Source of the DNA: Escherichia phage PECP14
Direction: 5' to 3' (one strand)
Sequence record: OQ870555.1
DNA: 64,000 bases
The notes below the pieces were generated by a model that was not told where the DNA came from, did not search any database, and worked only from the letters and a program-made list of their open reading frames with translations. Below, one piece after another: positions 11,284-60,948 of this stretch; position 1 is the stretch's first letter; each line of letters opens with the position of its first letter. The position numbers were made by a program, and so were the translations under genes.

Positions 11284-11308
11284 ATACATTTTTAAAGAAG
11301 GAGATTGT

Positions 11309-45095: not shown

Positions 45096-45122
45096 TTTTG
45101 TCTCTCATCAATTTATGTATAT

Positions 45123-45152
45123 ATTATACATTAAATCGGGAGGATTTGACAA
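45123..45152 (-). promoter_or_regulatory. Early promoter (TTGTCA-N18-TATAAT)
   Basis: Minus-strand -35 at 45147-45152, -10 at 45123-45128; conserved downstream leader ATATACATAAATTGATGAGAGA carrying the ribosome-binding site. Confidence 0.55.
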
Positions 45153-45223
45153 GTACAATTTTTATTTTTCTGCTTCGGACTTTCTTATCAATCCGAAACT
45201 TTCTCTCTCAAATTTATGAGTAT

Positions 45224-45252
45224 ATTATACAATAATTATGAGCAGTTGCCAA
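45224..45252 (-). promoter_or_regulatory. Early promoter (TTGGCA-N17-TATAAT), tandem with the promoter at 45123-45152
   Basis: Minus-strand -35 at 45247-45252, -10 at 45224-45229; overlaps the 3' end of the D10 helicase gene. Confidence 0.55.
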
Positions 45253-46588
45253 ATGCAATTTTAGCTAATTGTACTGCTTTCTCCGGAGTCATAGTAATAG
45301 TTTTCCATGCATTATTGCGATACACGGCCATACGTCCAGAAGCCTGTCTTAAACCAGTACCTCCTTTCATAATTAAATCTACAACAATCGGATCTAGCTT
45401 TCCGTCAACAATACGTTGAACGCGGCCTGCTAACTGTTCTATGAGAGATTCATTATTAATGAGACTTCCCATTATTAAACAAGACAGCTCGTTAAGAGAA
45501 ATACCTTCTGAGAAGATACTCTGAGCTGCTGCAAGCACACAGGGTCCGCCCTCCGCTACATCTTTCTGGATTCTCAATCGGTCATCCAAAGGAGTTGCAC
45601 CTATAATCTCATAGGTTGTAACACCACGTTGTGCGAGAGCTTCTAATATTGTTTGGATTAGTTCCGTCCTATCACTTACAAAGAGAACCTTATGCCCCAT
45701 AGACACATATAAATGTGCTAGGTTTATAATAGTTTCCCGATATTCAGGATGATTATATACATCATTAGCACGTAGTGCCCACGGTACGTTCTGGTTTCCT
45801 GATAACTCGACAGGTACGGAGTACCTATGGATTGTGGGTGGAACAGTGTTATTAACAGGGGGACTAAAGATCTTATATCCAAAGAAATCTTTGAACATAA
45901 CTTGTAGCCCATCTTTACGTTTTAATGTACCTGATAGACCGATCTTGTAGCGAGCACATGAGATCTCTAGGAAATTAGTGAAAGTTGTAGCTACACAGTG
46001 GTGAACTTCATCAACTATAACAGTACCGAATACCTTAGAAAGATTATTCGCATGTTTGTTCACTGTTTGTATATTACTGACCACGATTGGTGGATCAATG
46101 TTATACTTTCCAGAACCTATAATACCCGGCTCGAATCCAAACCATTTACGAACTTCTGCAGCCCACATTTCACGAATGGATGTGTTAGTGCAGATTACCA
46201 GAGTTTTCTGGCCAAACTTATATGCAAGAGCTAGAGCTAGGATAGTTTTACCAAATCCAGGCTTACCATTAATAATACAGGTATCATCGCACTCTTCATA
46301 TATAGGAAGCTGATCTTCTTCACGTAGCTTGAACTGAGGTTCTGGTATTTCTACCGGAGCTAATGTGCGTTTATCAACTAATTCGTATTTTACTCCCTTA
46401 GCATCTAGTAAATCCAGACGCGTAATGGGAATCCACTTAATCTCTTTAGCAACAACACCACTATTCTTATACATAATAGGGTATTTACTAGTCATTGTCT
46501 CGATGTGATAAGTGGTTTGCTTACTACAATAATCCCAGAGTTCATCATCGGGCTTGAAATAGGCTTTATTAGATATAACAACCTTCAT
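45236..46588 (-). CDS. D10: SF2 DNA helicase (D10-like, 450 aa)
   Basis: Walker A GKPGFGKT and DEAH-type box VIVDEVHH; helicase motif VI region QLAGRVQR. Confidence 0.85.
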   Translation of the reverse strand: MKVVISNKAYFKPDDELWDYCSKQTTYHIETMTSKYPIMYKNSGVVAKEIKWIPITRLDLLDAKGVKYELVDKRTLAPVEIPEPQFKLREEDQLPIYEECDDTCIINGKPGFGKTILALALAYKFGQKTLVICTNTSIREMWAAEVRKWFGFEPGIIGSGKYNIDPPIVVSNIQTVNKHANNLSKVFGTVIVDEVHHCVATTFTNFLEISCARYKIGLSGTLKRKDGLQVMFKDFFGYKIFSPPVNNTVPPTIHRYSVPVELSGNQNVPWALRANDVYNHPEYRETIINLAHLYVSMGHKVLFVSDRTELIQTILEALAQRGVTTYEIIGATPLDDRLRIQKDVAEGGPCVLAAAQSIFSEGISLNELSCLIMGSLINNESLIEQLAGRVQRIVDGKLDPIVVDLIMKGGTGLRQASGRMAVYRNNAWKTITMTPEKAVQLAKIAFGNCS

Positions 46589-47082
46589 AATTTTATTCTA
46601 AGTCTAGGAATTTCAGGCTCCTCTTGATGGACTTGATAAATAACAGGGCTATTATTTACCAGAATATAGCTTATATAAGCTGGAACATAGGATAGCACGA
46701 ATGGATACGGGACTTTAGCCACATAGCATTGATACTTTCCATTATAAATTCTTGCAGAATGCAGAACTTTAGATGTGATAACATCATAGAACGTAGTTTT
46801 CTTCCAGTTAATGAGATTTCCATCAGAATCTATGAACTGGCTACGCTTTGACCCAACTAATTGGGACAACATTGATATTCTACCACGAATAGGATAGAGC
46901 TTATAAGGTAATTCTTTCCGCTTCTCAAATAAGGCTAACCTACGTTGAGAGAATGTGCCAGGCAACTCCCTGTTATCCAGCACATATTTATTATATCTTG
47001 TTGTAATTACGGAATAATCACCTTCCTGCTCAATTGATACAAACGCCCGTAAAGCATATACGGGCAATTTGAAATCAAGCAC
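46585..47082 (-). CDS. hypothetical protein (165 aa)
   Basis: ORF between the DNA polymerase and helicase genes, overlapping both by a few nucleotides. Confidence 0.5.
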   Translation of the reverse strand: MLDFKLPVYALRAFVSIEQEGDYSVITTRYNKYVLDNRELPGTFSQRRLALFEKRKELPYKLYPIRGRISMLSQLVGSKRSQFIDSDGNLINWKKTTFYDVITSKVLHSARIYNGKYQCYVAKVPYPFVLSYVPAYISYILVNNSPVIYQVHQEEPEIPRLRIKL

Positions 47083-49642: not shown

Positions 49643-49703
49643 ATTTAGTCTCCTTTTGGTAAGTAAGTATAACTTCAGTGTTTCTTCTCTAACTTACCAA
49701 TAT

Positions 49704-49732
49704 ATTATACCAAATCTTTGAGCGATTCGGCA
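49704..49732 (-). promoter_or_regulatory. Candidate promoter with extended -10 (TGGTATAAT) upstream of the DNA polymerase gene
   Basis: Minus-strand TATAAT at 49704-49709 preceded by TGG; the -35 is weak; lies inside the 3' end of the primase gene. Confidence 0.35.
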
Positions 49733-50595
49733 ACTAAAATTTCAATACGTTGAGCCAACATATCGATCTCTTCTTTATTTAAATCACCTGGGTCTTTGCC
49801 TTCTGGAAGAAGGAAGTTACCAACTACAGGTGTTAAACGTGTTTTTGTACGAATTAGCTTCGCTAGTGCTTGAGCAGCTTTATTACCAGAGGCATCATTA
49901 TCTAATAGGATAACTACTACTCTTACTCCAGCAATAATGTAAGGACTGAACTTATCAGCAATGTTATCAGATGTAAACTGATGTGTACCAAAGCAGCAAG
50001 AAGCATAATCCACACCGTTATCTTCTAGATTTAACATATCAAAGATACCTTCAACTAGAACAAGAACTGGTGTATTATATCGTACAGGGAAAATCGGTGG
50101 TGAAACTTGTTTTGGTTTTACTAAGTATTTAGGAGGGGCAGAACCGTTTATAGAACGTCCCAGAAATAGGATATTGCGTCCAACAGCATCTGTTATTGGG
50201 AATACAATTCTGCCTTCCCAGTCTGCTTGATGTTGGAAAGCAAAATATTTCTTCAAGGTCTTAGAACTGATACCTCGGAAATCACCTTCGAAAAGGTAAG
50301 CAGATTCAGGAATTGCAAGATTCGTAGATCCATTCCTAATCTCTGAAATCTTTTTACGTACTTGTGACAATCTTGGTGACTGTCTGTACTGAGTCTCATT
50401 AAAATAATGGTAAATGCTCGGTATTCCTCTACCGAAGCCACAACTCAAGCAGTGCATAATACCTGATTCAGGATCAATACGCAAACTTGGGTGTTTATCA
50501 TCATGATCTGGATTGAGACAACAGATGAGGATGTCCCCACCTGTGTCTTTGTATTCAATGCCTTTCAGATCAAGTAGTTCTGTTATTCTACTCAT
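49705..50595 (-). CDS. DnaG-like DNA primase (zinc-binding domain plus Toprim, 296 aa)
   Basis: CHC2-type zinc motif CLNPDHDDKHPSL...HCLSCG; Toprim-like VLVEG and LLDNDASGNKAA. Confidence 0.8.
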   Translation of the reverse strand: MSRITELLDLKGIEYKDTGGDILICCLNPDHDDKHPSLRIDPESGIMHCLSCGFGRGIPSIYHYFNETQYRQSPRLSQVRKKISEIRNGSTNLAIPESAYLFEGDFRGISSKTLKKYFAFQHQADWEGRIVFPITDAVGRNILFLGRSINGSAPPKYLVKPKQVSPPIFPVRYNTPVLVLVEGIFDMLNLEDNGVDYASCCFGTHQFTSDNIADKFSPYIIAGVRVVVILLDNDASGNKAAQALAKLIRTKTRLTPVVGNFLLPEGKDPGDLNKEEIDMLAQRIEILVAESLKDLV

Positions 50596-52064
50596 ATATC
50601 GCTGGCCTGTTCACCTGTTGAATTTTCAGCTTTGTCTTTCTTAGCACGTTTAGGTTGAGCTGGTTTATCCTTTTCAATAGGAATAACGAACTCAGCTTCC
50701 ATTTGCGCAATATCTTCCATTGCTAGGTTGGTAGTATTATCCATTCGCAGAGTTTCCCAGTTCATCTTAGGCATAAACTTCACACTATCAGAGGAACGAG
50801 TCTTAACGAAGTCAAACATAATAGCACCTTGACCGTTATCAGCTTTTGCAGCATTAAGATTAGCAGCCATATCTGCGGAATCAAGAATCCCTTTAGACAT
50901 ACGCGTTCTACCATCTTGGTCAATCTGGTAAGGGGCAACACCAGCCACGTTATGTTTCTGGCAGATAGATTTGAAAGATGAACTAACAACCATCTGTTCT
51001 TTCCAGTCATACATATCAATGGTCTTTGAATCTGGAAGTCTTGTTTGGTTAATATAGTCTAGAAGAGCTACAGTAACCTTATCACCATACTTAGCAACTA
51101 GTTTATTTAATTCTACGTCAACCGTCGTAATAGACAGTTCAGGATCGTAAACGATGATCATAGGAGTGTGAAGCTCATAGCCTTCAAGGAGTTTACTTTC
51201 CATATCATAGAAGTCACTCATTTTAGCCATAGTGTATTGCTTAACGAAGTTATCGAAAAGCTCTTCACCACCATTAAACATCCTAGCCCTAGTTCTGGCT
51301 AATCTCAACAGAGCAGCACCTTCAAGAGTGTTATTACGCATTGCTAATGCAGATACTCCAGCTAACATAGCCAGATTACGTCTAAACACTTCGTGCTCTT
51401 TCATCTCAATTGAGAAGTATGGAGCAATGTCTCCATTCAAATATTGCTGAACCTGTATGTTTGAACAGATAATGGATTTACCAGTACCACGCCAACCACC
51501 AAGCAGTAACGTTTCTGTGCGAGCTAAACCAATTTGAGCGTCGAACTCATTACAAATACCAAGAGCGATCAAGTTCAGTTTGGTATCTTCTTCTCTCTGG
51601 AAAATACGCATTGTGTCTGCGTTGAATACCTTTCCAGTATTCGTTACTTTCTCTTCTAATTTTAAGTGAAGGGAGGCAACTCGGTTGAGAATTTCTCCCT
51701 GATCCAGCATTGTTAAATCTTGAAGCACGTCTGTTTCTAGAAGTTTCAGGAATAGATCCTGTGTATATTCGGCTTCTAGGACTTCAAGCGCCTGTTCCAT
51801 GCTCACTTCTGGAATTTGAGTGTTAGCTAAGACGACAAGAGCTTGAGAAAGGCGGGCGTTCCTATTGGCCTCAAGCATCAGTGCGTCAATGGACGGCATT
51901 GCGTTATATTTCTTATAATAATTCTGGACGGCTTGGTAAATTGAGGAGAAAGCGTCATTAAAATGATCTTTATGCAGTTTTGAGAATGTTTCCAATGCTA
52001 TTTGCTTCTGTTCAGAAGCGAGAAGCATCTTCAACACTACAGCTTGCACGTTAAACAAGGTCAT
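50592..52064 (-). CDS. DnaB-like replicative helicase (about 490 aa)
   Basis: Walker A GGWRGTGKS with RecA-like core; start set at the ATG preceded by AGGAG (the listed ORF extends to 52115). Confidence 0.75.
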   Translation of the reverse strand: MTLFNVQAVVLKMLLASEQKQIALETFSKLHKDHFNDAFSSIYQAVQNYYKKYNAMPSIDALMLEANRNARLSQALVVLANTQIPEVSMEQALEVLEAEYTQDLFLKLLETDVLQDLTMLDQGEILNRVASLHLKLEEKVTNTGKVFNADTMRIFQREEDTKLNLIALGICNEFDAQIGLARTETLLLGGWRGTGKSIICSNIQVQQYLNGDIAPYFSIEMKEHEVFRRNLAMLAGVSALAMRNNTLEGAALLRLARTRARMFNGGEELFDNFVKQYTMAKMSDFYDMESKLLEGYELHTPMIIVYDPELSITTVDVELNKLVAKYGDKVTVALLDYINQTRLPDSKTIDMYDWKEQMVVSSSFKSICQKHNVAGVAPYQIDQDGRTRMSKGILDSADMAANLNAAKADNGQGAIMFDFVKTRSSDSVKFMPKMNWETLRMDNTTNLAMEDIAQMEAEFVIPIEKDKPAQPKRAKKDKAENSTGEQASDI

Positions 52065-52107
52065 TCTCCTTTGCACGCTTTCGTGCCTTCTAAATGCAAA
52101 AAGGGGA

Positions 52108-52140
52108 AGGAGCATAGCCCCCTCCCCTTAGGTTTAATTT
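52108..52140 (-). terminator. Terminator hairpin (AAGGGGAGG / CCTTCCCCTT) followed by TTTTGCATTT on the minus strand
   Basis: GC-rich stem with one bulge plus T-run, directly downstream of gene 52147-52914. Confidence 0.55.
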
Positions 52141-52146
52141 ACCAGA

Positions 52147-52914
52147 TTATTCAGCAGCCGCAGCTTTTGCATCCAGTTTAGCACGCTTAGCGGCACCATC
52201 ATAGTCCTTAGCAACCAGACCACGACGAGACAGCATAGATTTAACACCGCGCTCAGACTTACCAGTTTTCTCAGCGATCTCAGCAACAGTCATGTTAGCC
52301 AGATCCAGACCTTCTAACAGATCTTCACGAGTTTTAGCACTTGAAGTTTCCTGTACCGGCATAGCAGCGATACGACCTTCACGAAGCAGACTCAGAGCTT
52401 TACCACGGATCTGCTTAATATTGCGACCGAAGTGAGCAGCGATAGCTTCAATAGTAGCACCAGCAACAACCTGATTAACGAAATCAGTTTCTTCGTCAGG
52501 AGTGAAGGAACGAACAGCAGCAGCTTTTTCGGTTGGCTTAACAGAAGCAGTCATTTCCAGACTCAGGATCTTACCCTGTACCTGCTTAGCACCGAACTGA
52601 CCACCAGCTACAGCAGCAGCGATTTCAGCGTAAGTATACTGACCAGCATGAGCGTTCAGGAAATCAACCAGTTCAGCTTCCTGCTCAGGAGTCCACGGGG
52701 ATTTCTGTACTTCGTTTGCTTTCTGTACTTCGAAACCTTCTTTACGCAGCTTAGAGCCAACAGAGCGAGCGGTAACGTCTTTGCCAGTCTCGGTAGCCAA
52801 TTCAGCAGCGATAGCAGCTACTTGTTCTTGAGAGATTACAGCAACACCCAGAGCAGTGGCTTTTGCTTTCAGAGACTCGGTTACACCTTCTACGTTCCAG
52901 TTCAGTTTAGACAT
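52147..52914 (-). CDS. DNA-binding protein with four tandem helix-turn-helix-like repeats (255 aa; possibly D5-like)
   Basis: Four repeats of the pattern (V/I)AxIAxx(T/F)G(K/R)...(K/R)xLxxxG; position next to the replication genes. Assignment to D5 is tentative. Confidence 0.55.
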   Translation of the reverse strand: MSKLNWNVEGVTESLKAKATALGVAVISQEQVAAIAAELATETGKDVTARSVGSKLRKEGFEVQKANEVQKSPWTPEQEAELVDFLNAHAGQYTYAEIAAAVAGGQFGAKQVQGKILSLEMTASVKPTEKAAAVRSFTPDEETDFVNQVVAGATIEAIAAHFGRNIKQIRGKALSLLREGRIAAMPVQETSSAKTREDLLEGLDLANMTVAEIAEKTGKSERGVKSMLSRRGLVAKDYDGAAKRAKLDAKAAAAE

Positions 52915-53689
52915 TATTATTTTTCTCCAATAGTTCTTTAATCGACAGGATTTCTATCCCATTCGTTTCGGCTTTCTTATAAGATGAGGAAGAACGTTTT
53001 GATTCATCCTCACAGATTAGGTATTTGACGTCTTTGGTAACGGACTTCTTAACCGTATATCCTAGACTTTCTAAATAGTTTGTTGCATCCGTTCGATTTG
53101 CAAAATCTTGCAAAGATCCGGTAATACAGACCGTGATTCCATTTGGCTGGGTAACTAAATCATCTGTAATGATGATATCCGCTTTAGCACCTCGAATACC
53201 TGTTGAGAATTTCCACGGTAATTCAATAACATCCTTGCCTTGTGGGGAATTTAGCCAGGTTTTGTAATTTTCTCCAGCCTTGCCGTCAGCCTTCACATCG
53301 TGGAAGCTAGTGCAATTTTGGGACAGTTTCTTTGCTGCAACCTCTCCAATAAGAGGAATTCCTAAAGAACCGAGAACTGAACCAAAGTCAGTGTCTCCGC
53401 GAACCTTAGTATTTAACTCGCTAATCAATTTAGCGGCAACCTTGCTACCCACAGCTCCGACCAAATCTTCTTCGGTCAGGTAAAACAGTTCTGAGATCTT
53501 AGTCAGCTCCAGCTTCTCAATAGTTTTCGGGCCAAAGCCCTTTAACTTCATTTTTGTGCAGAAGTTCTCGATTAACTTACTTGATTGCGCTGGACAGTTG
53601 GACTTATTCCTACAGAATAATTGCCCGTTGACAAGATCTAGCTTAGAACCACAAGAGGGACATTGTGTTGGAATTTCGATTTTCATCAA
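52907..53689 (-). CDS. NAD-dependent DNA ligase, C-terminal part (zinc finger, HhH and BRCT region; 260 aa)
   Basis: Four-Cys zinc finger CPSCGSKL...CRNKSNCPAQ, helix-hairpin-helix GFGPKT and a BRCT-like tail; separate ORF from the adenylation-domain gene. Confidence 0.75.
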   Translation of the reverse strand: MMKIEIPTQCPSCGSKLDLVNGQLFCRNKSNCPAQSSKLIENFCTKMKLKGFGPKTIEKLELTKISELFYLTEEDLVGAVGSKVAAKLISELNTKVRGDTDFGSVLGSLGIPLIGEVAAKKLSQNCTSFHDVKADGKAGENYKTWLNSPQGKDVIELPWKFSTGIRGAKADIIITDDLVTQPNGITVCITGSLQDFANRTDATNYLESLGYTVKKSVTKDVKYLICEDESKRSSSSYKKAETNGIEILSIKELLEKNNNV

Positions 53690-53717
53690 ATTTCTTCCTT
53701 ATCAATTTATATAAATA

Positions 53718-53746
53718 TTATAACAAGTATTTAAGCATTTAGCAAC
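53718..53746 (-). promoter_or_regulatory. Early promoter TTGCTA-N17-TATAAT in the gap between the two ligase ORFs
   Basis: Minus-strand -35 at 53741-53746, -10 at 53718-53723, TG immediately upstream of the -10. Confidence 0.6.
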
Positions 53747-53888
53747 TACAATTTTAACTAACTTTGCTTACCCTCGCCATAACTTTCTATCCCTCAACTG
53801 AATGATAATAGTATATACCTAAGCGGCGAAAATGTCAATAACCACTTTATAATTCCGACATGGTAAACGGGTAGCAAAGGGTTACGAA

Positions 53889-54860
53889 TTAGTCGTATAC
53901 TCGCTCTACTATACAAGGGATTACACCACCAGCACGAATCACTCGAATCTGGCAACCGATCTCTAAATCGAGAGCGTTAATATAATCAACGTTATTAAGA
54001 GTTGCTTTAACGATTGTGGCATCATCAATAATCACCGGCTCGAAATAACCAACTGGAGTTACTTTACCAGAAGCCCCTACTTGCCATTCAACTTTAACAA
54101 GTGTGGTAATTTCGCCTTCTTCATCCTCTTTAATAGCAAATGCGCCACGAGGAAATTTATTAGTCCAACCTTCACGGAAGAATTTGTTGTTATCATTAAT
54201 ACGAACAACTTTACCATCTGTCGGAATCCATTTAAAGAAGGAACGAACATTAACAACTGTCAAGAAGTTCTCATTCTCTAGCCAAAGCATATCTTTTAAA
54301 TAGGCTTCTGTAATACCGACTGTTTCCGCTGAACACTGGATACCATATGCAACGAAGATTAAACCACCTTCACCAATACGTTGGATGAAATCATCGCTGT
54401 CTTTCAGGTTAATAGCACCTGAAGCGTAGTTACGTTTGTTCTCTACTTCTTTAGTAATGAGAACTTCACCAGTGATTTGAGTTGGAACTTTTTGGGAAAT
54501 AGTTTTAGGGATGTTCAGCATTTTAACATTATGCGTTACATCATTCCCTAGAATACCGTTACCACGAGTTAACGCTTGAACAAATTCACCATTAATATAT
54601 AATAGAGAAATCGCACAACCATCTAACTTATCAGTTTCAACCTGACCTAATGGATTGAATGGAGCTTTATCACCGCGACCGTAATAGACTTTCTGCAAAG
54701 AATACATACGATACAAATGAGGAATATCACCTTTCGGTCCGATTTCTTCCTCCAGTGGGAATCTTTTAATCAGACGATCATATTCTTCATCGGAAATAAG
54801 ACTCATTCCCTGGTAGTACGCTTCTTGACAACGTTTGATAAAGTCTTTTACATTATTCAT
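53889..54860 (-). CDS. NAD-dependent DNA ligase, N-terminal adenylation domain part (323 aa)
   Basis: Adenylation motif I KLDG (ETDKLDGCAIS) and following nucleotidyltransferase/OB region; ends 200 bp upstream of the C-terminal-part ORF. Confidence 0.75.
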   Translation of the reverse strand: MNNVKDFIKRCQEAYYQGMSLISDEEYDRLIKRFPLEEEIGPKGDIPHLYRMYSLQKVYYGRGDKAPFNPLGQVETDKLDGCAISLLYINGEFVQALTRGNGILGNDVTHNVKMLNIPKTISQKVPTQITGEVLITKEVENKRNYASGAINLKDSDDFIQRIGEGGLIFVAYGIQCSAETVGITEAYLKDMLWLENENFLTVVNVRSFFKWIPTDGKVVRINDNNKFFREGWTNKFPRGAFAIKEDEEGEITTLVKVEWQVGASGKVTPVGYFEPVIIDDATIVKATLNNVDYINALDLEIGCQIRVIRAGGVIPCIVERVYD

Positions 54861-55053
54861 CGTCTGCGATTTCCATTTTGAGTTCTTTGTTATACTGAGC
54901 AGCCATACCAGCTAAATCAGCAGCTTCTTTCAACCACGCATCTTTGTACGCTTTCTGGTTTGGAGTGCCGATACTATCCTGGTAATTGATTCTTGCTATG
55001 GAGAGCAAATTAAGTTTTGCTTGAATCTTTGGAAGTGTTATTGTCATTGCCAT
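54853..55053 (-). CDS. hypothetical small protein (about 66 aa)
   Basis: ORF directly downstream of an early promoter; start set at the ATG 6 nt after GAGAGGA. Confidence 0.4.
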   Translation of the reverse strand: MAMTITLPKIQAKLNLLSIARINYQDSIGTPNQKAYKDAWLKEAADLAGMAAQYNKELKMEIADDE

Positions 55054-55082
55054 AATTGATCCTCTCATCAATTTATATAAAT

Positions 55083-55111
55083 ATTATATATGAAAACTGA
55101 GTCGAAAGCAA
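55083..55111 (-). promoter_or_regulatory. Early promoter TTGCTT-N17-TATAAT
   Basis: Minus-strand -35 at 55106-55111 and -10 at 55083-55088; conserved downstream leader. Confidence 0.6.
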
Positions 55112-55127
55112 GTACATTTATAAAGAA

Positions 55128-55150
55128 AAAGCCAAGAACTAGGCATTCTT
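55128..55150 (-). terminator. Terminator hairpin GCCAAGAA-N7-TTCTTGGC followed by TTTTTCTTTAT on the minus strand
   Basis: 8-bp stem plus T-run at the 3' end of gene 55139-55447. Confidence 0.5.
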
Positions 55151-55447
55151 GGCTTTGAGTTCTTCAGCTCGTTTCTGTACTTCATGCAAGACCTCGGATT
55201 CACTGAGGATTTGCGTAAAAGCGTAGAATAGCTGTGATGTAGTTTCTAGGGTATAAGGAAAAGAGAAGCCGGATTTCGTTGGAAACCACTCTCCAGTAAT
55301 ATCTTGGAGCCAGTAACGAATTCCCATGTATAGATTCCCACGAAATTCAGATACGGTTAGTCTTACTTGTTCCCCCTCCTTCTCCCAAAGCATGATGGAC
55401 TGGTCGTCAACGTGTCCTTCATAGTTTTGATTTACCTGATCGCTCAT
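55139..55447 (-). CDS. hypothetical protein (102 aa)
   Basis: ORF with terminator hairpins at both flanks. Confidence 0.5.
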   Translation of the reverse strand: MSDQVNQNYEGHVDDQSIMLWEKEGEQVRLTVSEFRGNLYMGIRYWLQDITGEWFPTKSGFSFPYTLETTSQLFYAFTQILSESEVLHEVQKRAEELKAKNA

Positions 55448-55469
55448 TTACATATCCCAAATACACAAA

Positions 55470-55490
55470 AAGCCCCATATAGGGGCTAAT
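55470..55490 (-). terminator. Terminator hairpin AGCCCC-N5-GGGGCT followed by TTTTTGTGTATTT on the minus strand
   Basis: Stem plus T-run downstream of gene 55498-55794. Confidence 0.5.
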
Positions 55491-55497
55491 TGGTTTC

Positions 55498-55794
55498 TTA
55501 TCGGCCTACTGGAGAAGCACGATCTAACTCTGACTGGAGGCTCGTCACACGGCGAACTTTCGCAACAGGAATGAAACGGAAGCTATCGTTAGTACGAGAG
55601 AAAACGAGGATTTCATCTTCTTTCGGCTTACGGATGCGCTCACGTTTAATACGCTCAGCCAGGTATTTATCCTGAGCTGGATCAAATTCCATTGTACCCT
55701 GAAGGTACGTGGTTCCTTTCTGACGAAGTTTTTCGTAATGAAGATAAAACTCACCAAATTTTTCGCATTGAGCAATAATTTCAGCTTTATTCAT
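55498..55794 (-). CDS. hypothetical protein (98 aa)
   Basis: ORF in the early leftward array. Confidence 0.5.
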   Translation of the reverse strand: MNKAEIIAQCEKFGEFYLHYEKLRQKGTTYLQGTMEFDPAQDKYLAERIKRERIRKPKEDEILVFSRTNDSFRFIPVAKVRRVTSLQSELDRASPVGR

Positions 55795-55830
55795 AACTGT
55801 ATTCCTTGTGTTGGTGGATTTATCTAAGAA

Positions 55831-56241
55831 TTACTTAGTGATAGCTCGGATAGCTTCTGCCAGATGAGCAGCTGCTTTACCGGTCAGCTTGTCGATGATT
55901 GCGTCGTCCAGGAAGTCCGGTGCTAAGCCAGCATCAGAGAATGCAGAGCGAAGATCGGAGTGAGCCTGAGCTTTGGAAGTACGAGAACCACCAGAAGCTT
56001 TTTCTCCAGTAGATGCGCTTGATTTAGAAGTAGAGCCAGCAGCTTTCTTGATATACAGACCTGCTTTGGTCAGCTTCATACGGAAACCGTTCGGAGTTAC
56101 ACCATTTTCCTGAGCAATTTCGCTAACAATTTCCATGCTAACGCCCGGACGCTCATCTTCTGGGAATTGCTCCATACGAGCAACGTAGTCGGAAGACATT
56201 TTTTCGAACAGTTCATCAGTCCACTGAGTTGGAGTAGTCAT
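55831..56241 (-). CDS. hypothetical protein (136 aa) carrying one HTH-like repeat related to those in 52147-52914
   Basis: Motif EIVSEIAQENGVTPNGFRMKLTKAGL resembles the repeat unit of the 255-aa protein; possible paralogue. Confidence 0.5.
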   Translation of the reverse strand: MTTPTQWTDELFEKMSSDYVARMEQFPEDERPGVSMEIVSEIAQENGVTPNGFRMKLTKAGLYIKKAAGSTSKSSASTGEKASGGSRTSKAQAHSDLRSAFSDAGLAPDFLDDAIIDKLTGKAAAHLAEAIRAITK

Positions 56242-56299
56242 ATTTTTCGATTTCCTTAATTAAGAATTAAACAGAATAGTTCTTTCAAACTATGAGAAT

Positions 56300-56328
56300 A
56301 TTATATCAAGAATTACAGGATTAAGCAA
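56300..56328 (-). promoter_or_regulatory. Early promoter TTGCTT-N17-TATAAT
   Basis: Minus-strand -35 at 56323-56328 and -10 at 56300-56305. Confidence 0.55.
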
Positions 56329-56348
56329 CTGAAATTTTTCAGTAACTG

Positions 56349-56603
56349 CTACACATCTAGTTCAACGATCTCCCAATCGTTGGCCAGAGCTTCGTCTAGA
56401 GTTAGCTCAGTGGTTTTCCACGATGCATCGTCTAGCGTGAGTTTAGTGCGTCCATCTTTAGACCACCACCATGTAAATTCTACGATGTCATTATTATCAA
56501 CATCTACTTTGATAATAGTAGTAGAATAAGTATTGTTTTCCCAGCTATCTCGCTGGAGATATTTTACATCTCCAGCTTTTAACAGATCAGTTAGTTTACT
56601 CAC
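56349..56603 (-). CDS. hypothetical protein (84 aa)
   Basis: ORF; start overlaps the upstream gene by 8 nt. Confidence 0.45.
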   Translation of the reverse strand: MSKLTDLLKAGDVKYLQRDSWENNTYSTTIIKVDVDNNDIVEFTWWWSKDGRTKLTLDDASWKTTELTLDEALANDWEIVELDV

Positions 56604-57300
56604 GGCGTTTTCCTTTCTCTTTATCGAGTTTCAGGGCAGCTTTAACAGCTTCATTAACCAACGTGATAACTTCTTCACGACTCCACTTAAAGCCTAGAGC
56701 TTTAACGTCAACACCCAGCTTTTCCAGATGTTTAACAGAAGCTAATTCGTAGTGCATATAGTGCACGTTCTGTTGTTTACCTTCTGATAACAACCAAACA
56801 CGATAACAACCAACTGGATTAGTCATTGCTTTCTTGATCTCACCAATACACTGATAGCCAGGAACCCAAACAAGTTCACCAACTTCAAACTCTTCTGCCA
56901 TTGCATCATCAGGAATCAGCGGAGGATTCAATGGATCAACAATATCGTTTAAACGAAGCAGAGCACCATAACGTTCCAGAACAGATTTAATCATCGCTAC
57001 AGAACGATAGTTACGATCAGCAATTTCTTCAAAAGAATCACCAGAAAGATACTGTTCAATTACGTTTGCAAGCTCAACACCCTCAATCAGTGTTCCGCGC
57101 TTCTTCTTTTTCATTTCCGCAACTTGAACCTGACGATCTCTCCATTCTTCGATCATTCGTTCCATAGTTGGGTTAGAAGAAACACCGAGCATTTCACATG
57201 CTGCTTTCTTAGTACCACCATTCTCCAGATGTTCAATAACCTTTTTAAAGGTTTCATCAGGGATTTCATGGATAAGTTTCTTTCTACGAGAACCAGCCAT
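56596..57300 (-). CDS. putative DNA-binding protein with N-terminal helix-turn-helix (234 aa)
   Basis: HTH-like segment KKAACEMLGVSSNPTMERM; first gene after an early promoter. Confidence 0.5.
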   Translation of the reverse strand: MAGSRRKKLIHEIPDETFKKVIEHLENGGTKKAACEMLGVSSNPTMERMIEEWRDRQVQVAEMKKKKRGTLIEGVELANVIEQYLSGDSFEEIADRNYRSVAMIKSVLERYGALLRLNDIVDPLNPPLIPDDAMAEEFEVGELVWVPGYQCIGEIKKAMTNPVGCYRVWLLSEGKQQNVHYMHYELASVKHLEKLGVDVKALGFKWSREEVITLVNEAVKAALKLDKEKGKRRE

Positions 57301-57331
57301 ATTTAAACTCCTCTCTCAAATTTATGAATCT

Positions 57332-57360
57332 ATTATACAGAAAATTTTTCCTGAAAGCAA
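57332..57360 (-). promoter_or_regulatory. Early promoter TTGCTT-N17-TATAAT
   Basis: Minus-strand -35 at 57355-57360 and -10 at 57332-57337; leader with GAGAGGAG ribosome-binding site. Confidence 0.6.
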
Positions 57361-57369
57361 ATAAAATTT

Positions 57370-57603
57370 TTATGATTCTTTGAGCAAAGAAGCAAGTTCA
57401 GCATAGACTTTATCTAACTCAAAGCCAATGCGAAGAGACACACGAGTCTTCCGTTGTTTAAGTAACCATATGGAGACATTAGGGATGCCAGCGAGACGAG
57501 GTGGTACAACCCTACATAGTTTCTCCGCAGTATCGTAAACAGAAGTTTTACGTTCTTTTATGGGAAACTTCCTTGTTTCCCACTTTTTATTCTTCACTGT
57601 CAT
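57370..57603 (-). CDS. hypothetical basic protein (about 77 aa)
   Basis: ORF with GGGAG upstream of an internal ATG; the listed longer form overlaps the upstream gene. Confidence 0.4.
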   Translation of the reverse strand: MTVKNKKWETRKFPIKERKTSVYDTAEKLCRVVPPRLAGIPNVSIWLLKQRKTRVSLRIGFELDKVYAELASLLKES

Positions 57604-60376
57604 TTCTAGCTCCCAATTCAGCAAGAGCTTCCTCATGCATCTGACGTTCTTCATCTGTCATAAACTTAACTGGAATCGGCATACATTCGATCTTACAGTA
57701 AGTTCTGTACCAGTCCACAATCTTTTCCGTATCCAGATCTTTACCGATACCCATCATGCCAAGATACATACGAGCATATTTTGGGTTAGCGCTCTGACCT
57801 GTCTTAAGGAAGAAATCCTTCTTCTTATTCTTAAGAGCTTCGATAAACGGTTTGATTGTTACGTTTGAACACTTTTTAATATCTTCCCAGAACATCTCGT
57901 GCATCTTATGGAAAAATGCAGCTCGATCATTCGGTTTATCCTTGATATACTGTTCAACGTGTTCCACTGTTACATCTTTAATAGAATCCAGATGATAATA
58001 GCGAACCAGAAGTAACTTGGCTTCATAGGCATCTGCATGACGTGGTGCGCAATATTCAGGAGTTGAGTGCAGAATAGCTTTGATTCGCTCTTCTGTATAC
58101 TCTTTGCCTGCACCTTCGATAGTCCCCCAGCTTTCACTGAAGATATCAATAGTTGCACCTTGATCGAGAAGATAATAACGCAAAGTACTGGTATAGTTTC
58201 TAGATTCCAGCTCACGACGGCGTGCGTACAGTTGCTGAGCTAACTCAATCCAACCCTCGTCAATATTATATTGCTCGGAACCCGCAGAGAATCCACTCGT
58301 AGATTTATCAATAAAATAATAAATGTTCTGAGCACCACGGTCGCGCCTGATTGCTTGAAAACGCATGTTTGGCGCTTGGTTTGAGGTTCTAGTGATTACG
58401 AATACGTTATCAAAATAGTTAAAGTCAACACCACTCGTTACAGATGGACTACATAATAAACAATCAATCTGTTGATCAATTAGCTCATTAGTTGTATAAT
58501 CCAGAATACGTCGGATATCTACATCAGACGTAGAGTTTGAGTGAATTTCTTTAACTAACGCACCAGTATTACGACGTAATGCCATTCCCTTCTCATTCAG
58601 TTCATCCGGGCCACAGTCAGATACTAGGATTGATTTCTCCCCCATCTCTAAAGATGTTTGAAGTGCAACCCAAATACTGGATTCATCAGGGAATTCATAA
58701 GCATGAGCTTTCGCCAGCATTTTACGGTGGTGATTATAAAATGCGACTGGTTTATCAAAATCAATCAAAGAACCATAGGCTTCAATCGTTTCTGCACTGA
58801 TATCACCATCGGATAAGATAACAGTTTTAGCAGTAATAAGGATATCACGAAGAACCTGAATACATTCACGACGGTTTTTAACAACCGGAGCGAATAACAG
58901 ATCATTCATTACTGCGTCACATTCATCAATAAAGATCGTATCAATCTGACCCACAAAGCTCTTGAACTTATGGATAGAGTGAATAGTTGAAGACATACGA
59001 TCAATGGCACCACGTTTGAAGTTCAGCATATCAACTGACTTATCATACTGACCAGCACCGAATTTCTTCGCGTTAGAAGATACAAGTGCCCTAGTATTTG
59101 TGATTGCAATAAAGTTTCCTGGAAGAACACCTGCATCTAGCCACTTAGTTACTGCTGTAGTTTTACCCGTACCAAGACTTGCCTTAACAAATGTTAAATG
59201 TCCTTTTGGGGGTACAATGTTAATTTTCAGGTACGGAACTTCTGGTGGAGAATCTGTGTCTAGACGTTTTAATGGTACACCTTTTAAGTTTGGTGGAATC
59301 TCACGTTTGGAGTTATTTACAAAGGCTTTGAGAGCCTGCTTACGACCGTTATTAAAGTAATCTTGAATATTACGACTATTATCTTTAGTCGCAATATACT
59401 CAGATAAAGCTGGTTTAATCTCACGTTCTAACCACGTAAAGTCAACACCATCTTCTAACGCTCTGTGATAAAGTTTTGGGATAATACGCAGGTACACTCC
59501 ATCCTCAGCTTCTTCTAGTTCGCTGATGGTTTCTTCCACTTTATCAGATGCAGCCTTCTTGCCTTTAATTTGATCAAGTAAGGAGTAGAACTCTTCTTTA
59601 AACTCACCTCTAGTTGTTTCAAAGTCAACTAGGTTATTAGGTAGATTCACCTTCGAACCCTTAACATATACAAGACGTGGTTTATTCTCCGCTTTAAACG
59701 GATCGACTATACCATCATCAAATAAGGGATCTGCAAAATAGTGAAGCTGAACAGAAGAATAATAAGCTAAGTCAGCAATATCAAAGCCATACTTTTGCTT
59801 ACTACTGTCATTGATAGATGTAAATAAGAACTTTAACTGTCCCTGCGTTACCTTGACATTAGATTCTAGCATTAAGTGCATTCGGATACCTGGTTTTAAT
59901 CCAGCCGAAGACGATGCATGGGCAATAAACCCTGCATCAAGAGGAAACATATCCTCACTAATACTATTCAACATCTTAATAATATGACGTGCCATGCCAA
60001 CAAGATTAAACTTGTCATAGCCACCAGTATCTACAATACCATCCACGTCCATAGCAATAATATGACTAGGATTGGATACGTTAAAGTTTCCCCTGGTACG
60101 ACGCACATTATCTTTTGGAGCTAAACATTTACCACGAATAGCTACAATATGCGGGTCTTTGGTAAGACGACGCATGATAGGTAACATTTCAGCAAGGTTT
60201 TGCGGGTCAAGTTCTTCAAGTACATCAAATTTGAAGGGCATGGAAGCTGGTTTACCTTCTGGATGCTCTTTAGAGAATCGCTTTGCAAAGGTGTAATCTT
60301 CCACTTTGATCTCTTTCCAGATGCCAGTGGCTTTATCTCTGGAAAATCCTGCGTGACCTTGTAGGATTGAGAACAC
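57587..60376 (-). CDS. putative replication-origin-binding / SF2 helicase-like protein (about 930 aa; start uncertain)
   Basis: Walker A ASLGTGKTTAV and DExD-like IFIDECDAV; GTG at 60376 is preceded by AGGAG, while the listed ATG at 60499 adds a Cys-rich, non-protein-like 41-aa extension. Confidence 0.65.
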   Translation of the reverse strand: MFSILQGHAGFSRDKATGIWKEIKVEDYTFAKRFSKEHPEGKPASMPFKFDVLEELDPQNLAEMLPIMRRLTKDPHIVAIRGKCLAPKDNVRRTRGNFNVSNPSHIIAMDVDGIVDTGGYDKFNLVGMARHIIKMLNSISEDMFPLDAGFIAHASSSAGLKPGIRMHLMLESNVKVTQGQLKFLFTSINDSSKQKYGFDIADLAYYSSVQLHYFADPLFDDGIVDPFKAENKPRLVYVKGSKVNLPNNLVDFETTRGEFKEEFYSLLDQIKGKKAASDKVEETISELEEAEDGVYLRIIPKLYHRALEDGVDFTWLEREIKPALSEYIATKDNSRNIQDYFNNGRKQALKAFVNNSKREIPPNLKGVPLKRLDTDSPPEVPYLKINIVPPKGHLTFVKASLGTGKTTAVTKWLDAGVLPGNFIAITNTRALVSSNAKKFGAGQYDKSVDMLNFKRGAIDRMSSTIHSIHKFKSFVGQIDTIFIDECDAVMNDLLFAPVVKNRRECIQVLRDILITAKTVILSDGDISAETIEAYGSLIDFDKPVAFYNHHRKMLAKAHAYEFPDESSIWVALQTSLEMGEKSILVSDCGPDELNEKGMALRRNTGALVKEIHSNSTSDVDIRRILDYTTNELIDQQIDCLLCSPSVTSGVDFNYFDNVFVITRTSNQAPNMRFQAIRRDRGAQNIYYFIDKSTSGFSAGSEQYNIDEGWIELAQQLYARRRELESRNYTSTLRYYLLDQGATIDIFSESWGTIEGAGKEYTEERIKAILHSTPEYCAPRHADAYEAKLLLVRYYHLDSIKDVTVEHVEQYIKDKPNDRAAFFHKMHEMFWEDIKKCSNVTIKPFIEALKNKKKDFFLKTGQSANPKYARMYLGMMGIGKDLDTEKIVDWYRTYCKIECMPIPVKFMTDEERQMHEEALAELGARNDSEE

Positions 60377-60872
60377 AACAATACTCCTATGTTGGTTATT
60401 CGGATATCTTTCTTTAGGACTATTCAAAAGAATAGAACAACTATTACTACCATTTACACAAACATTAATCATCATCAAGCAGTATGAATAAGTTATCATA
60501 CCTCAGTGCTGCGCTCTCTTAACTCTTATCCAGATCAGAACCTAGGTCATTGGCCGCTAAGCCGATTCTGATTGCCCTCACTATCCTATTGGTAGGTGGC
60601 TACTGGACGTGTCACCATTCGCTGCTCTTTTCGTTCGCACCCCCATATAAAGCTCTGCCTATATAACGAGCTAAATATGCACGGTTTGGATTTACCTTTC
60701 CGAATTCAGGGTACGCAGATCACTTAATTGATAATTAACTAATGCAGTATAAACACTAGTAATAGTTAAAACAACCCTTAATGGGGCAGCCTAACTGTTC
60801 CGTATTGCGGATTGTAAACAAGAAAAATTAGCAAAATCAATTTTTACTAATGTCTCTCAATTCAATATAAAT

Positions 60873-60901
60873 ATTATATCAAGATTTTGAGCATCCTGCA
60901 A
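60873..60901 (-). promoter_or_regulatory. Early promoter TTGCAG-N17-TATAAT
   Basis: Minus-strand -35 at 60896-60901 and -10 at 60873-60878; unusually far (about 500 nt) upstream of the next gene start. Confidence 0.55.
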
Positions 60902-60948
60902 GTAAAATTTTTCCGAAGGTGCTATCAGTGTCTTTGAGCACAGAGAAA

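Follow-up and report, generated by a model that had tools for sequence, protein, structure and literature searches.

Early promoters of the T5 type with a conserved transcribed block in the EPS7-like Escherichia phage PECP14

What are the near-identical minus-strand sites that recur along the DNA of Escherichia phage PECP14 (OQ870555.1), and why does their similarity continue past the -10 element into the transcribed sequence? A preliminary description of the window, i.e. the whole 64,000-nucleotide stretch analysed here, had read eight of these sites as strong T5-like early promoters, duplicated as a promoter-leader cassette whose AT-rich downstream segment runs directly into the ribosome-binding site of the first gene. 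The phage is an EPS7-like T5 relative (Epseptimavirus) and not T5 itself; the window is ~99% identical to EPS7/Stitch-type Epseptimaviruses. The best explanation, in which we have high confidence, is that the sites are early promoters of a T5-like phage, dependent on sigma-70. The observation is correct, but the family is already known: these strong early promoters have been studied at length in T5-like phages, and the counterpart of PN25, a promoter used in expression vectors, is among them.

Reading of the sequence recovered all eight sites, each with a perfect TATAAT at -10. The shared -35 element takes the form TTG(C/T/G)NN, wider than the TTG(C/T)NN first given, and the spacer is 17 nt at seven sites and 18 nt at 45123-45152, within the described range of 17-18 nt. 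The fourth site exists, with coordinates that had been 1 nt off (from -35 to -10 it covers 53745-53717). The AT-rich downstream segment is likewise present, as ATAAATT(G/T)A followed by GAGAGG-like purine-rich sequence, and the tandem arrangement at 45123-45252 is real and occurs in T5 too.

The genome-wide motif search that the preliminary description had called for places the extended motif far above chance. A degenerate 51-nt pattern, AAAWTNNANTTG-N20-TATAATANNYNYATARWTT with at most two mismatches, has 7 matches, on the minus strand only, compared with 0.00 expected from 100 shuffles, and TATAATANNYNYATAAATT has 8 matches compared with 0.67 expected. With a two-block weight matrix the eight sites score 49-63 bits, while the best match in 30 shuffled windows reaches 9.1 bits. 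Scored leave-one-out, the 22-nt downstream block by itself yields 12.8-26 bits in seven of the eight sites (2.5 bits at 56300-56328) and the upstream A-tract block yields 9-14 bits. A scan of the window with the generic sigma-70 consensus shows no excess (54 matches vs 49.3 expected from shuffled sequence), and of its 86 TATAAT hexamers only those at family sites are followed by the downstream block; in other words, specificity resides in the extended motif and not in the generic consensus. Two further members score far above the null out of sample: one, with its -10 element at 49709, reaches 24.7 bits, and the other, at 4224, reaches 39.2 bits. The minus strand, which is the coding strand, carries all ten copies, and the motif falls at gene boundaries; at 45 related loci, matches of 12 bits or more are likewise found on the coding strand only (Table 1).

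Table 1. Promoters and neighbouring elements in the window; predicted +1 positions were set by analogy with N25, whose oligo is given as -12 to +2 in PMC7472727
Feature	Coordinates	Strand	Elements	Leader or first gene	T5 counterpart (AY692264)
Early promoter, -46 to +16	60851..60912	-	-35 TTGCAG 60901-60896; -10 TATAAT 60878-60873; predicted +1 60866		'putative promoter' 50951-51018, 95.5% identical
P-N25 counterpart	57310..57371	-	-35 TTGCTT 57360-57355; -10 57337-57332; predicted +1 A 57325	Shine-Dalgarno GAGAGGAG; ATG at +26 (57300) of 234-aa T5 D3 homologue	annotated P-N25, 83/85 identical; -12 to +30 fully identical
P-N26 counterpart	56278..56339	-	-35 TTGCTT; TGn-extended -10 56305-56300; predicted +1 56293	leader ~52 nt to ATG 56241	annotated P-N26, 79/85 identical
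ligA-unit promoter	55061..55122	-	-35 TTGCTT; -10 55088-55083; predicted +1 55076	ATG +24 (55053); first ORF 66 aa, precedes ligA	putative promoter 57237-57304
P-K28a counterpart	53695..53756	-	-35 TTGCTA 53745-53740; TGn-extended -10 53722-53717; predicted +1 53710	ligB ATG at +25 (53686)	annotated P-K28a, 84/85 identical
DNA polymerase gene promoter (extra member)	49682..49744	-	-35 TTGCCG; 18-nt spacer; -10 49709-49704	leader ~55 nt to TTG start 49642	putative promoter 62954-63022, 84/87 identical
Tandem pair, upstream promoter	45202..45263	-	-35 TTGGCA 45252-45247; -10 45229-45224; predicted +1 45217	overlaps 3' end of D10 helicase ORF	same sequence at 67470 (57.1 bits), without annotation
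10-bp hairpin GUUUCGGAUU...AGUCCGAAGC	45172..45199	-	between tandem promoters; +19 to +46 of upstream transcript		sequence identical
Tandem pair, downstream promoter	45101..45163	-	-35 TTGTCA; 18-nt spacer; -10 45128-45123; predicted +1 45116	ATG +22 (45095) of 120-aa ORF	putative promoter 67535-67603
Llp-like lipoprotein gene promoter	11233..11294	-	-35 TTGCTT; -10 11260-11255; predicted +1 11248	ATG +24 (11225)	putative llp promoter
Candidate extra member, lower confidence	4197..4259	-	-35 TTAGCC (poor); 18-nt spacer; perfect -10 4224-4219; full downstream block		weaker counterpart at 6075 (24.8 bits), without annotation
P-K28b counterpart (different design)	53788..53849	-	TTGACA-N17-TATACT plus ...TCATTCAGTTGAGG; tandem, upstream of P-K28a counterpart		annotated P-K28b, 85/85 identical
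Terminator-like hairpin with T-run	60949..60969	-	9-bp stem, 5 G-C pairs, then TTTCTCTGTG
Terminator-like hairpin	55128..55156	-	12-bp stem; T-run merges into upstream A/T tract of ligA-unit promoter
Conserved structured leader portion, ~330 nt	60478..60817	-	covariation support

That this is a T5-type early promoter family with a conserved transcribed segment, as had been proposed, is borne out by alignment to the T5 record AY692264. Counterparts annotated there are P-N25, P-N26 and P-K28a, all experimentally characterised, along with the putative ligA, DNA polymerase, post-D10 (T5p123), upstream-of-D2 and llp promoters; the correspondence is one-to-one by position, with 68-99% identity over -55 to +35. 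The published description of N25 as having 'No C until +30' (PMC12464699) also holds for its counterpart here. Experimental support in T5 covers only N25, N26 and K28a, which were cloned by function, and Ppol, by primer extension, the other counterparts being 'putative' in AY692264. Klimuk et al. (2020) place strong sigma-70 promoters ahead of the T5 early genes, assign the ATATT discriminator to the early class and, by primer extension, count Ppol as early (PMC7472727); the promoter of the DNA polymerase gene is probably the counterpart of this Ppol, a match by name and position only.

The promoters would split the early DNA-replication module into transcription units, namely the origin-binding helicase, D3, small ORFs, ligA, ligB through primase, DNA polymerase through D10, and D11 onward, with the llp gene as a putative further unit under its own family promoter. 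The terminator-like hairpin directly upstream of the 60878 promoter marks a transcription-unit boundary. The hairpin between the tandem promoters is not an intrinsic terminator because it lacks a T-run; the 140-nt stretch containing it folds at -27.9 kcal/mol (z = -3.67), and the upstream tandem transcript would pass through this hairpin and then read through the second promoter. Outside the replication module, the 11233..11294 promoter drives the gene of an Llp-like receptor-blocking lipoprotein, with a lipobox signal, MKKLLAIVVAAAVLTGC, and 97.8% identity to a phage Stitch region annotated 'receptor-blocking protein'; conservation with the T5 llp promoter is limited to the functional blocks. 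The 4224 copy sits in the middle of the terminal repeat, in non-coding sequence, without a start codon within ~400 nt, and may be inactive, given its poor -35. The P-K28b counterpart was considered as a family member and rejected on account of its different promoter design, of which the window holds one other copy (14982, + strand).

How far does the similarity extend? Between copies it is confined to about -46 to +16, approximately the RNA polymerase footprint. Mean pairwise identity is 0.70 in the UP-like tract, 0.68 in the -35 element, 1.0 in the -10 element, 0.60 in the discriminator, 0.74 from +1 to +8 and 0.54 from +9 to +16 (91% purine), compared with 0.39-0.44 for the spacer and ~0.31 on both flanks (past +17 and 5' of -47). 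Among 28 related genomes, -46 to +16 is again the least variable segment: a column there differs in 0-1.4 of 5 groups (1.8-1.9 for the -35 hexamer and spacer), against ~3 of 5 for positions outside it. In these counterparts, +1 to +15 of the origin-binding-helicase promoter varies more than in N25 or N26. The promoter design is kept, decaying gradually, in relatives whose D3 proteins are 71% and 42% identical. Within the family here, the downstream block of the P-N26 counterpart, ATAGTTTGAAAGAA, is the most diverged.

Each promoter can thus be pictured as a module of ~62 bp, with a UP-like proximal A-tract (~-46 to -38), a -35 that is imperfect (mostly TTGCTT) and separated by 17-18 bp from a perfect TATAAT at -10, an AT-rich discriminator and a predicted +1 A, whose transcript would open with the conserved initial transcribed sequence AUAAAUU(G/U)A and a purine run (GAGAGG). 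Published work on T5 early promoters calls this conserved segment the 'downstream region' (DSR, initial transcribed sequence). T5 PN25 and its DSR were reportedly the subject of work by Gentz and Bujard in 1985 and by Kammerer et al. in 1986. Host RNA polymerase binds PN25 so fast and so tightly that escape becomes rate-limiting (PMC12464699); Hsu & Han (2025) give a kon of 2.9e8 M-1 s-1 and an open-complex half-life of 180 min for N25, and the native AT-rich, purine-rich +1 to +20 (DSR) leads to efficient escape, with output falling to 1/10 when it is replaced, as in antiDSR (PMC12464699). More generally, a 2024 review puts the effects of the initial transcribed sequence at >10-fold and notes that productive yield correlates with purine content (PMC10911233). 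We infer that the block may serve escape in the other family members as well.

The block would double as a ribosome-binding site in five of the ten copies and is kept in the other five (45229, 60878, 56305, 49709 and 4224), none of which has a start codon within 30 nt. The proposal that the segment leads straight into a ribosome-binding site and a start codon stands for five of the eight sites first listed (11255, 45123, 53718, 55083 and 57332, with ATG at +22 to +26) and falls for those at 56300, 45224 and 60873, where leaders of ~52 nt, ~120 nt and 370-490 nt, respectively, intervene. In the former five, the purine run would also act as the Shine-Dalgarno sequence of the gene starting at +22 to +26, making for very short, weakly structured leaders; in the remaining five copies of the family, the block may be retained for its transcriptional role alone.

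Might the block instead be primarily a translation signal, its A/U-rich 5' end a landing site for the ribosome (S1) beside a strong Shine-Dalgarno sequence, kept for high translation of the first gene? GAGAGG or AAGGAA does lie 6-10 nt 5' of the ATG (+22 to +26) at 11260, 45128, 53722, 55088 and 57337, and the 40-nt leaders fold only weakly (-0.8 to -6.3 kcal/mol, near shuffles), but block and purine run are kept in the five copies that lack a start codon in the next 30 nt, and the T5 counterparts keep both. The N25 effect, moreover, was seen in the balance of abortive and productive transcription in vitro, a setting free of translation (PMC12464699). Roles in transcription and translation can coexist; a primarily translational function seems to us unlikely. 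We regard as more doubtful the idea that discriminator and block are the target of a phage regulator that shuts off the whole early class, either an operator-binding repressor or gpT5.026, an RNA-polymerase-binding protein that weakens contacts with -5 to +2. Klimuk et al. propose that differing gpT5.026 effects are tied to the early-class ATATT discriminator, and loss of gp026 raises early transcripts, but the effects of gpT5.026 on transcription in vitro are at most two-fold (PMC7472727). The block is indeed class-specific, missing from the T5 pre-early promoters P-H22 and P-D/E20 and from K28b-type and G25-like promoters, and what is kept in relatives at 71% protein identity is a specific sequence, ATAAATTGA, not base composition alone. 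Against such a target, the exact ATATT pentamer occurs in only ~4 of the 10 copies here, and consistent dyad symmetry was not found, only the ATTTATATAAAT variants being palindromic at the eight listed sites.

Promoter-stem-loop (PeSL) cassettes have been proposed for T4-type phages, and the copies here could by analogy be a mobile or recently duplicated cassette that also offers short homology patches for modular gene exchange. In 29 related genomes, several mosaic or indel breakpoints adjoin cassette edges. Those at 56344 and 57373 lie 5 nt and 2 nt upstream of the N26 and N25 modules, respectively; 55062, at +15 of the ligA-unit promoter, is the point of insertion of the 66-aa ORF, and a further breakpoint is at 60878. 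Two copies have terminator hairpins directly upstream. Breakpoints beside conserved islands are to be expected, however, because intergenic space is tiny and alignments resume at sequence preserved by selection. As similarity between copies ends at about the polymerase footprint, with flanks at background and spacers at or near it, there is no sign of recent duplication, and the copies have stable positional counterparts in T5, the five in the replication-module loci also in more distant relatives. The 'duplicated cassette' of the preliminary description is thus not demonstrated, and we judge a mobile or recently duplicated cassette to be very improbable. As for chance resemblance in an AT-rich genome, the generic consensus scan, taken alone, would be compatible with it, but the 51-nt pattern, the weight-matrix and leave-one-out scores and the TATAATANNYNYATAAATT counts rule it out, and the sites all lie on one strand at gene boundaries; its probability is practically nil.

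A separate observation concerns the 60873-60901 promoter, which leads not to a ribosome-binding site but to a long non-coding leader that separates it from the origin-binding helicase gene. This leader holds a conserved RNA structure with strong covariation support. It comprises two invariant 5' hairpins, a 3' hairpin (60505-60485), a hairpin with invariant GGCUUAGCGGCC at 60563-60552, and a long-range helix (60723-60713 with 60514-60506) that closes a domain of ~220 nt. Across 20 distinct sequences, its 51 pairs are 98.9% paired, with compensatory double changes at 22 pairs compared with 2-8 in slid controls, and in five metagenomic sequences kept out of the derivation of the structure 51/51 positions pair. 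Within 60478..60817 there is no minus-strand ORF >21 aa, and an Rfam search with this leader matched no family.

Among known systems, the closest is PN25 itself. The 57310-57371 promoter likewise lies upstream of a D3 homologue and has the same A-tract, TTGCTT, 17-bp spacer, TATAAT, +1 A and AUAAAUUUGAGAGAGGAG; it differs by two substitutions within the A/T runs of the upstream region and spacer, and in belonging to an Epseptimavirus (EPS7-like) and not to T5. With the T5 early class as a whole (AY692264; PMC7472727) the family shares the AT-rich early-type discriminator and the downstream block. Two copies common to both genomes, the upstream tandem member and the terminal-repeat copy, are without annotation in T5, and by alignment the ligA-unit promoter is separated from ligA here by the extra 66-aa ORF.

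The T5 pre-early (P-H22, P-D/E20), late (PG25, PJ5) and K28b-type promoters belong to the same phage family, use host sigma-70 polymerase and have an A-rich upstream region, but they represent other temporal classes (PMC7472727). P-H22, P-D/E20 and K28b combine a consensus TTGACA -35 with a non-consensus -10, unlike the family here, and none has the ATAAATT block. Promoters with UP elements of the rrnB P1 type are similar in their A/T tract at ~-46 to -38, which is conserved here both between copies (0.70) and among counterparts; the N25 papers label this tract as a UP element (including PMC12464699), but only the proximal part is conserved in our family, with -59 to -47 at background, and the tract is UP-like by sequence. 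T7 A1 and lambda PL, other strong phage early promoters, are not known to have the ATAAATT-GAGAGG transcribed block or the combination of a perfect TATAAT with TTGCTT. What these promoters and ours have in common is that, as infection begins, they are served by host sigma-70 polymerase in unmodified form and compete very strongly for it, with an output set by escape as well as by binding (PMC12464699).

All eight of the near-identical minus-strand promoters put forward in the preliminary description are present, the only correction being to the fourth, which is offset by 1 nt (it really extends over 53745-53717, from -35 to -10). When the eight sites are lined up by their -10 hexamers no gaps are needed, and the module runs, in order, from an A-tract, (T/A)AAAATT, through a -35 element that is mostly TTGCTT, a spacer, TATAAT and a discriminator to the transcribed block, in which ATAAATT(G/T)A leads into a purine run, e.g. 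GAGAGG. With a two-block weight matrix these sites score 49-63 bits, where shuffled windows reach 9.1 bits at most, and the matrix adds two unlisted copies: 49709, before the DNA polymerase gene, at 24.7 bits, and 4224, a candidate in the terminal repeat with a poor -35, at 39.2 bits (copies are named by the window position at which the -10 hexamer starts). All ten copies lie on the minus strand. The proposed layout holds throughout, with a perfect TATAAT and a spacer of 17-18 bp in every copy (17 nt in the listed sites, except 18 nt at 45128); the -35 begins TTG in nine, the exception being TTAGCC at 4224.

Where does the specificity of this family reside? A generic sigma-70 consensus scan of the window is not discriminating (54 matches versus 49.3 expected). 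A motif search, the check that had been suggested genome-wide, gives 7 matches in the window to a 51-nt degenerate pattern, with 0.00 expected, and a pattern made of the -10 and downstream sequence gives 8 matches in the window, with 0.67 expected. Scored by leave-one-out, seven of the eight sites owe 12.8-26 bits to the downstream block by itself, and the A-tract contributes 9-14 bits. On the question of whether the motif is as frequent outside promoters, the window holds 86 TATAAT hexamers, and the block is present at family sites only. In other words, specificity resides only in the extended motif and not in the generic sigma-70 consensus. Gentz and Bujard are said to have noted in 1985 that both consensus hexamers are never perfect together in T5 early promoters; the combination of TTGACA with TATAAT is found in none of the ten copies, and the one nearby promoter with TTGACA, the counterpart of T5 K28b, has TATACT. 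An extended -10 TG at -15/-14 is present in only 4/10 copies (53722, 56305, 60878 and 49709) and is not family-wide.

Positions of the early-promoter copies and of neighbouring elements in the window, with counterparts in the T5 record AY692264
Feature	Coordinates	Strand	Start codon or leader	T5 counterpart	Identity
Copy 4224	-10 at 4224	-	no start codon within about 400 nt	unannotated, weaker	
Copy 11260	11255-11283	-	ATG at +22 to +26	putative llp promoter	functional blocks conserved
Copy 45128	45123-45152	-	ATG at +22 to +26	putative promoter after D10	60/88
Copy 45229	45224-45252	-	about 120 nt, via hairpin and second promoter	unannotated	
Copy 49709	49704-49733	-	about 55 nt	putative promoter before DNA polymerase gene	84/87
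Copy 53722	53717-53745	-	ATG at +22 to +26	P-K28a	84/85
Copy 55088	55083-55111	-	ATG at +22 to +26	putative promoter before ligA	72/88
Copy 56305	56300-56328	-	about 52 nt	P-N26	79/85
Copy 57337	57332-57360	-	ATG at +22 to +26	P-N25	83/85
Copy 60878	60873-60901	-	370-490 nt	putative promoter upstream of D2	84/88
Inter-promoter hairpin	45172-45199	-			
ATG after copy 45128	45093-45095	-			
Primase stop codon	49705-49707	-			
66-aa ORF before ligA	54853-55053	-			
Second-design promoter	53792-53838	-		P-K28b	
Second-design promoter	14982-15005	+			
Late-like site	27992-28052	+			
DnaA boxes	340-348, 401-409	+			
DnaA boxes	4078-4086, 4127-4135	-			
Non-coding leader of copy 60878	60376-60866	-			
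Structured part of leader	60478-60817	-			
Promoter-like site in leader	60811-60840	-			

Similarity among the ten copies is restricted to about -46 to +16. Mean pairwise identity is 0.70 in the A-tract (-46 to -36; 0.39 expected), 0.68 in the -35 hexamer, 1.00 in the -10 hexamer, 0.60 in the discriminator, 0.74 from +1 to +8 and 0.54 from +9 to +16, where the sequence is 91% purine; it is 0.39-0.44 in the spacer and about 0.31 upstream of -47 and beyond +17, the spacer and flank values lying at or near the prediction from base composition. A survey of constraint in five groups of counterpart promoters across 28 close relatives finds the same stretch of about -46 to +16 to be the least variable: the -10 is invariant, and variation is seen in about one of the five groups for the A-tract, discriminator and +1 to +16, in about two for the -35 hexamer and spacer, and in about three for the flanks. 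The A-rich, UP-like tract around -43 is found in all copies, as (T/A)AAAATT at -46 to -38, and its variability among counterparts is low. The discriminators are 6 nt long and 85% A+T; the consensus for T5 early-type discriminators, ATATT (Klimuk et al. 2020, PMC7472727), spans the end of the -10 exactly at 53722, 55088, 56305 and 60878, and the remaining copies, that of N25 included, carry the variants ATATA, ATAGA and ATACT.

The genomic setting is that of a T5-like phage. The 45-61 kb region is ~99% identical to Salmonella and Escherichia phages of the EPS7/Stitch type (Epseptimavirus, Demerecviridae), so the phage is a relative of T5 and not T5 itself; the identification of the sites as promoters of the T5 early type is right. 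The early DNA-replication module occupies the minus strand here, in the order origin-binding helicase, D3, small ORFs, ligA, ligB, D5-region protein, replicative helicase, primase, DNA polymerase, D10 helicase and D11, and the copies precede replication genes or llp on the coding strand, with the exception of 4224. Copy 11260 is outside the module; the gene after it encodes the Llp-type receptor-blocking protein, a lipoprotein of 88 aa with a lipobox. Copy 4224 falls within pre-early DNA, in the non-coding middle of the terminal repeat, and the temporal class of this candidate is uncertain. Two copies have terminator-like hairpins directly upstream, which shows that the promoters begin transcription units of their own.

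Promoter features of the T5 record align with eight of the ten copies, and for the other two the matching T5 sequence carries no annotation. From -12 to +30 the N25 counterpart does not differ from T5 N25; its +1 was taken from a published N25 oligonucleotide covering -12 to +2, TATAATAGATTCAT (PMC7472727), and it also agrees with the published description of the N25 transcript as free of C until +30 (PMC12464699). The 49709 promoter is probably the counterpart, matched by name and position, of T5 Ppol, which is early by primer extension (PMC7472727). The end of the primase ORF contains this promoter, and the primase stop codon forms part of its TATAAT. The tandem pair reported at 45123-45252 is real, and T5 has the same arrangement, inter-promoter hairpin included, with only the downstream member annotated. 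That hairpin is stable, has 10 bp and no T-run, is identical in T5, and might act in 5' stabilisation or in processing. An ATG stands at +22 of the downstream member, where T5 has ATT (locus L003 ~9605-9607), its annotated start being ~80 nt beyond; the two phages thus begin this gene at different places, unless a rare start codon is used in T5.

Conservation of position extends well beyond T5. Five tested copies are at the same relative positions in 28/28 close relatives, all ten have T5 counterparts, and in 45 related loci matrix matches of at least 12 bits are all on the coding strand, with zero on the opposite strand. The design persists, in decaying form, in relatives with 71% or 42% identity in the D3 protein, e.g. 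TATAATGTATTTATAAATTGAATAAGGAA. Our literature search found no genome-wide map of T5 transcription starts.

What exactly is the function of the transcribed block? It had been described as running directly into the ribosome-binding site. If +1 is placed as in N25, this is true of five copies, in which the purine run is the Shine-Dalgarno sequence of a nearby ATG; the other five keep the block without a nearby start codon. This retention argues for a function independent of translation, and we consider a mainly translational role unlikely for the same reason. The block is the published DSR (the conserved initial transcribed sequence) of T5 early promoters, and studies of N25 account for it: E. 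coli sigma-70 holoenzyme binds N25 very fast (kon 2.9e8 M-1 s-1) and very stably (half-life 180 min; PMC12464699), and replacement of the native +1 to +20 lowers full-length RNA ~10-fold (Kammerer et al. 1986, summarised in PMC12464699 and PMC10911233). Because the open complex at N25 is so stable, promoter escape becomes rate-limiting, and the native AT-rich, purine-rich +1 to +20 allows fast escape with few abortive products; where an ATG is close, the purine run doubles as a Shine-Dalgarno sequence. This N25 escape model is the best-supported explanation of the family. Conservation limited to the footprint fits it, and we extend it to the whole class by inference. A structured 5' stabiliser was dropped as a family feature because the folds of the short-leader RNAs are weak (z +0.7 to -2.2) and none is shared or unusually stable.

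Might the early-to-late switch act on the early-class block, from -6 to +16? Only early-class promoters carry the block, and Klimuk et al. propose that gpT5.026 acts via the early-type discriminator (PMC7472727), but the block has no consistent dyad symmetry, and we regard this reading as improbable and weaker than that of the structured RNA discussed below. An operator-like dyad was rejected as a family property, palindromes being confined to ATTTATATAAAT variants. Less probable still is a mobile or recently duplicated cassette of the T4 PeSL-like type. Several mosaic breakpoints adjoin cassette edges, which raised the idea of a recombination hotspot but is suggestive only, since the same picture would arise wherever conserved islands lie between closely spaced genes. 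The earlier description of a duplicated cassette is not supported: homology ends at about -46 and +16, positional counterparts are stable in relatives, and the background or near-background identity of spacers and flanks led us to reject recent duplication. Chance resemblance, finally, is excluded by the weight-matrix null and the count for the 51-nt pattern. As a separate observation, comparison of 50000-64000 with loci L005-L033 reveals recurrent indel or replacement breakpoints a few nt from the module edges 56344, 57373, 55062 and 60878, and further ones at the terminators 52057-52146; several involve ~540-770 bp insertions, which are likely homing-endonuclease genes.

Copy 60878 deserves separate treatment. 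It feeds a non-coding leader ahead of the origin-binding helicase gene, in which there is no minus-strand ORF >21 aa; an Rfam E-value search of 60350-60900 gave only a meaningless 12-bit match and no Rfam family, and a tRNA scan and Rfam at gathering threshold gave no match in the whole window. Among T5-like genomes, leader sequence classes are only 47-64% identical to that of the window, and two invariant anchors span a segment of 340-344 nt in every genome. A consensus fold of the structured part (about 330 nt), derived from 20 distinct leader sequences, has 51 pairs, with 98.9% of cells paired versus 32-44% with slid partners, and compensatory double changes at 22 pairs versus 2-8 in the slid controls. 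For example, a long-range helix, 60723-60713 with 60514-60506, occurs as GCG/CGC, GUG/CAC and ACA/UGU; a single sequence class contains two of these variants, and one inherited event therefore does not account for the changes. Five metagenomic sequences outside the derivation of the structure each form 51/51 pairs, and an invariant GGCUUAGCGGCC hairpin lies at 60563-60552. Together these results are good evidence for a structured RNA, supported by covariation, upstream of the origin-binding helicase gene.

A viral-contig scan with the invariant leader block returned only the T5-like genomes already collected, with one copy each, and our literature search found no RNA described upstream of D2; large-scale surveys of phage RNAs (PMC10690425) list unnamed candidates, of which this RNA may be one. 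We put at about even the chance that 60878 is the promoter of an undescribed structured RNA rather than a promoter and ribosome-binding-site cassette, in which case the RNA could be a cis leader for helicase translation, a stable ncRNA, or an origin or R-loop transcript. A second promoter-like site inside the leader, TTGATT-N18-TACAAT, is nearly invariant among relatives, and its predicted start falls at the first invariant block of the RNA, such that the RNA may have its own promoter.

Additional elements were encountered along the way. The sequence TTGACA-N17-TATACT followed by AT(T/A)(A/T)TCAT(T/A)CAGTTGAGG occurs exactly twice in the window (0.00 expected), once in tandem upstream of the early-type K28a counterpart and once on the late-gene strand, a hint that the early region contains a promoter of late type. 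Another plus-strand site combines TTGATA-N17-TATAAT with ATTGTTATTAAGAGGAGAAATTAACTATG and presumably resembles the T5 late promoter PG25 and the pQE 'RBSII' leader. Its assignment (at 28015) to P-D/E20 was rejected, as AY692264 has P-D/E20 in the terminal repeat with another sequence. The perfect DnaA-box consensus, TTATCCACA, is found four times versus 0.71 expected, always in the terminal repeat, and one pair of boxes lies ~80-130 nt downstream of candidate 4224. A 66-aa ORF is inserted so as to fill exactly the interval from +15 of the ligA-unit promoter to the start codon of ligA, and it uses the Shine-Dalgarno sequence of the cassette; it is absent in T5 and many relatives and unannotated in EPS7.

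The most useful lead from this work is the incidental structured RNA, which might bear on the regulation or initiation of T5-like replication. The promoter family itself is already known, being that of the T5 early promoters in a close relative, and little about it is new. Knowledge of T5 early promoters goes back to the early 1980s, and PN25 is in standard use in expression vectors and promoter-escape studies. The T5 pre-early promoters P-H22 and P-D/E20, with a TTGACA -35 and a non-consensus -10, differ from the family in lacking the block, as does the K28b-type design. To this established picture we add that the early-promoter set and its transcribed block are positionally conserved between Tequintavirus and Epseptimavirus, with the five replication-module promoters keeping their positions even in a relative whose D3 is 71% identical and conservation of the set fading gradually in more distant Demerecviridae; that the purine-rich block is kept where use as a ribosome-binding site is impossible, which supports the escape explanation across the class and beyond N25; and that two conserved copies, the upstream tandem member and the terminal-repeat copy, are missing from the T5 annotation.
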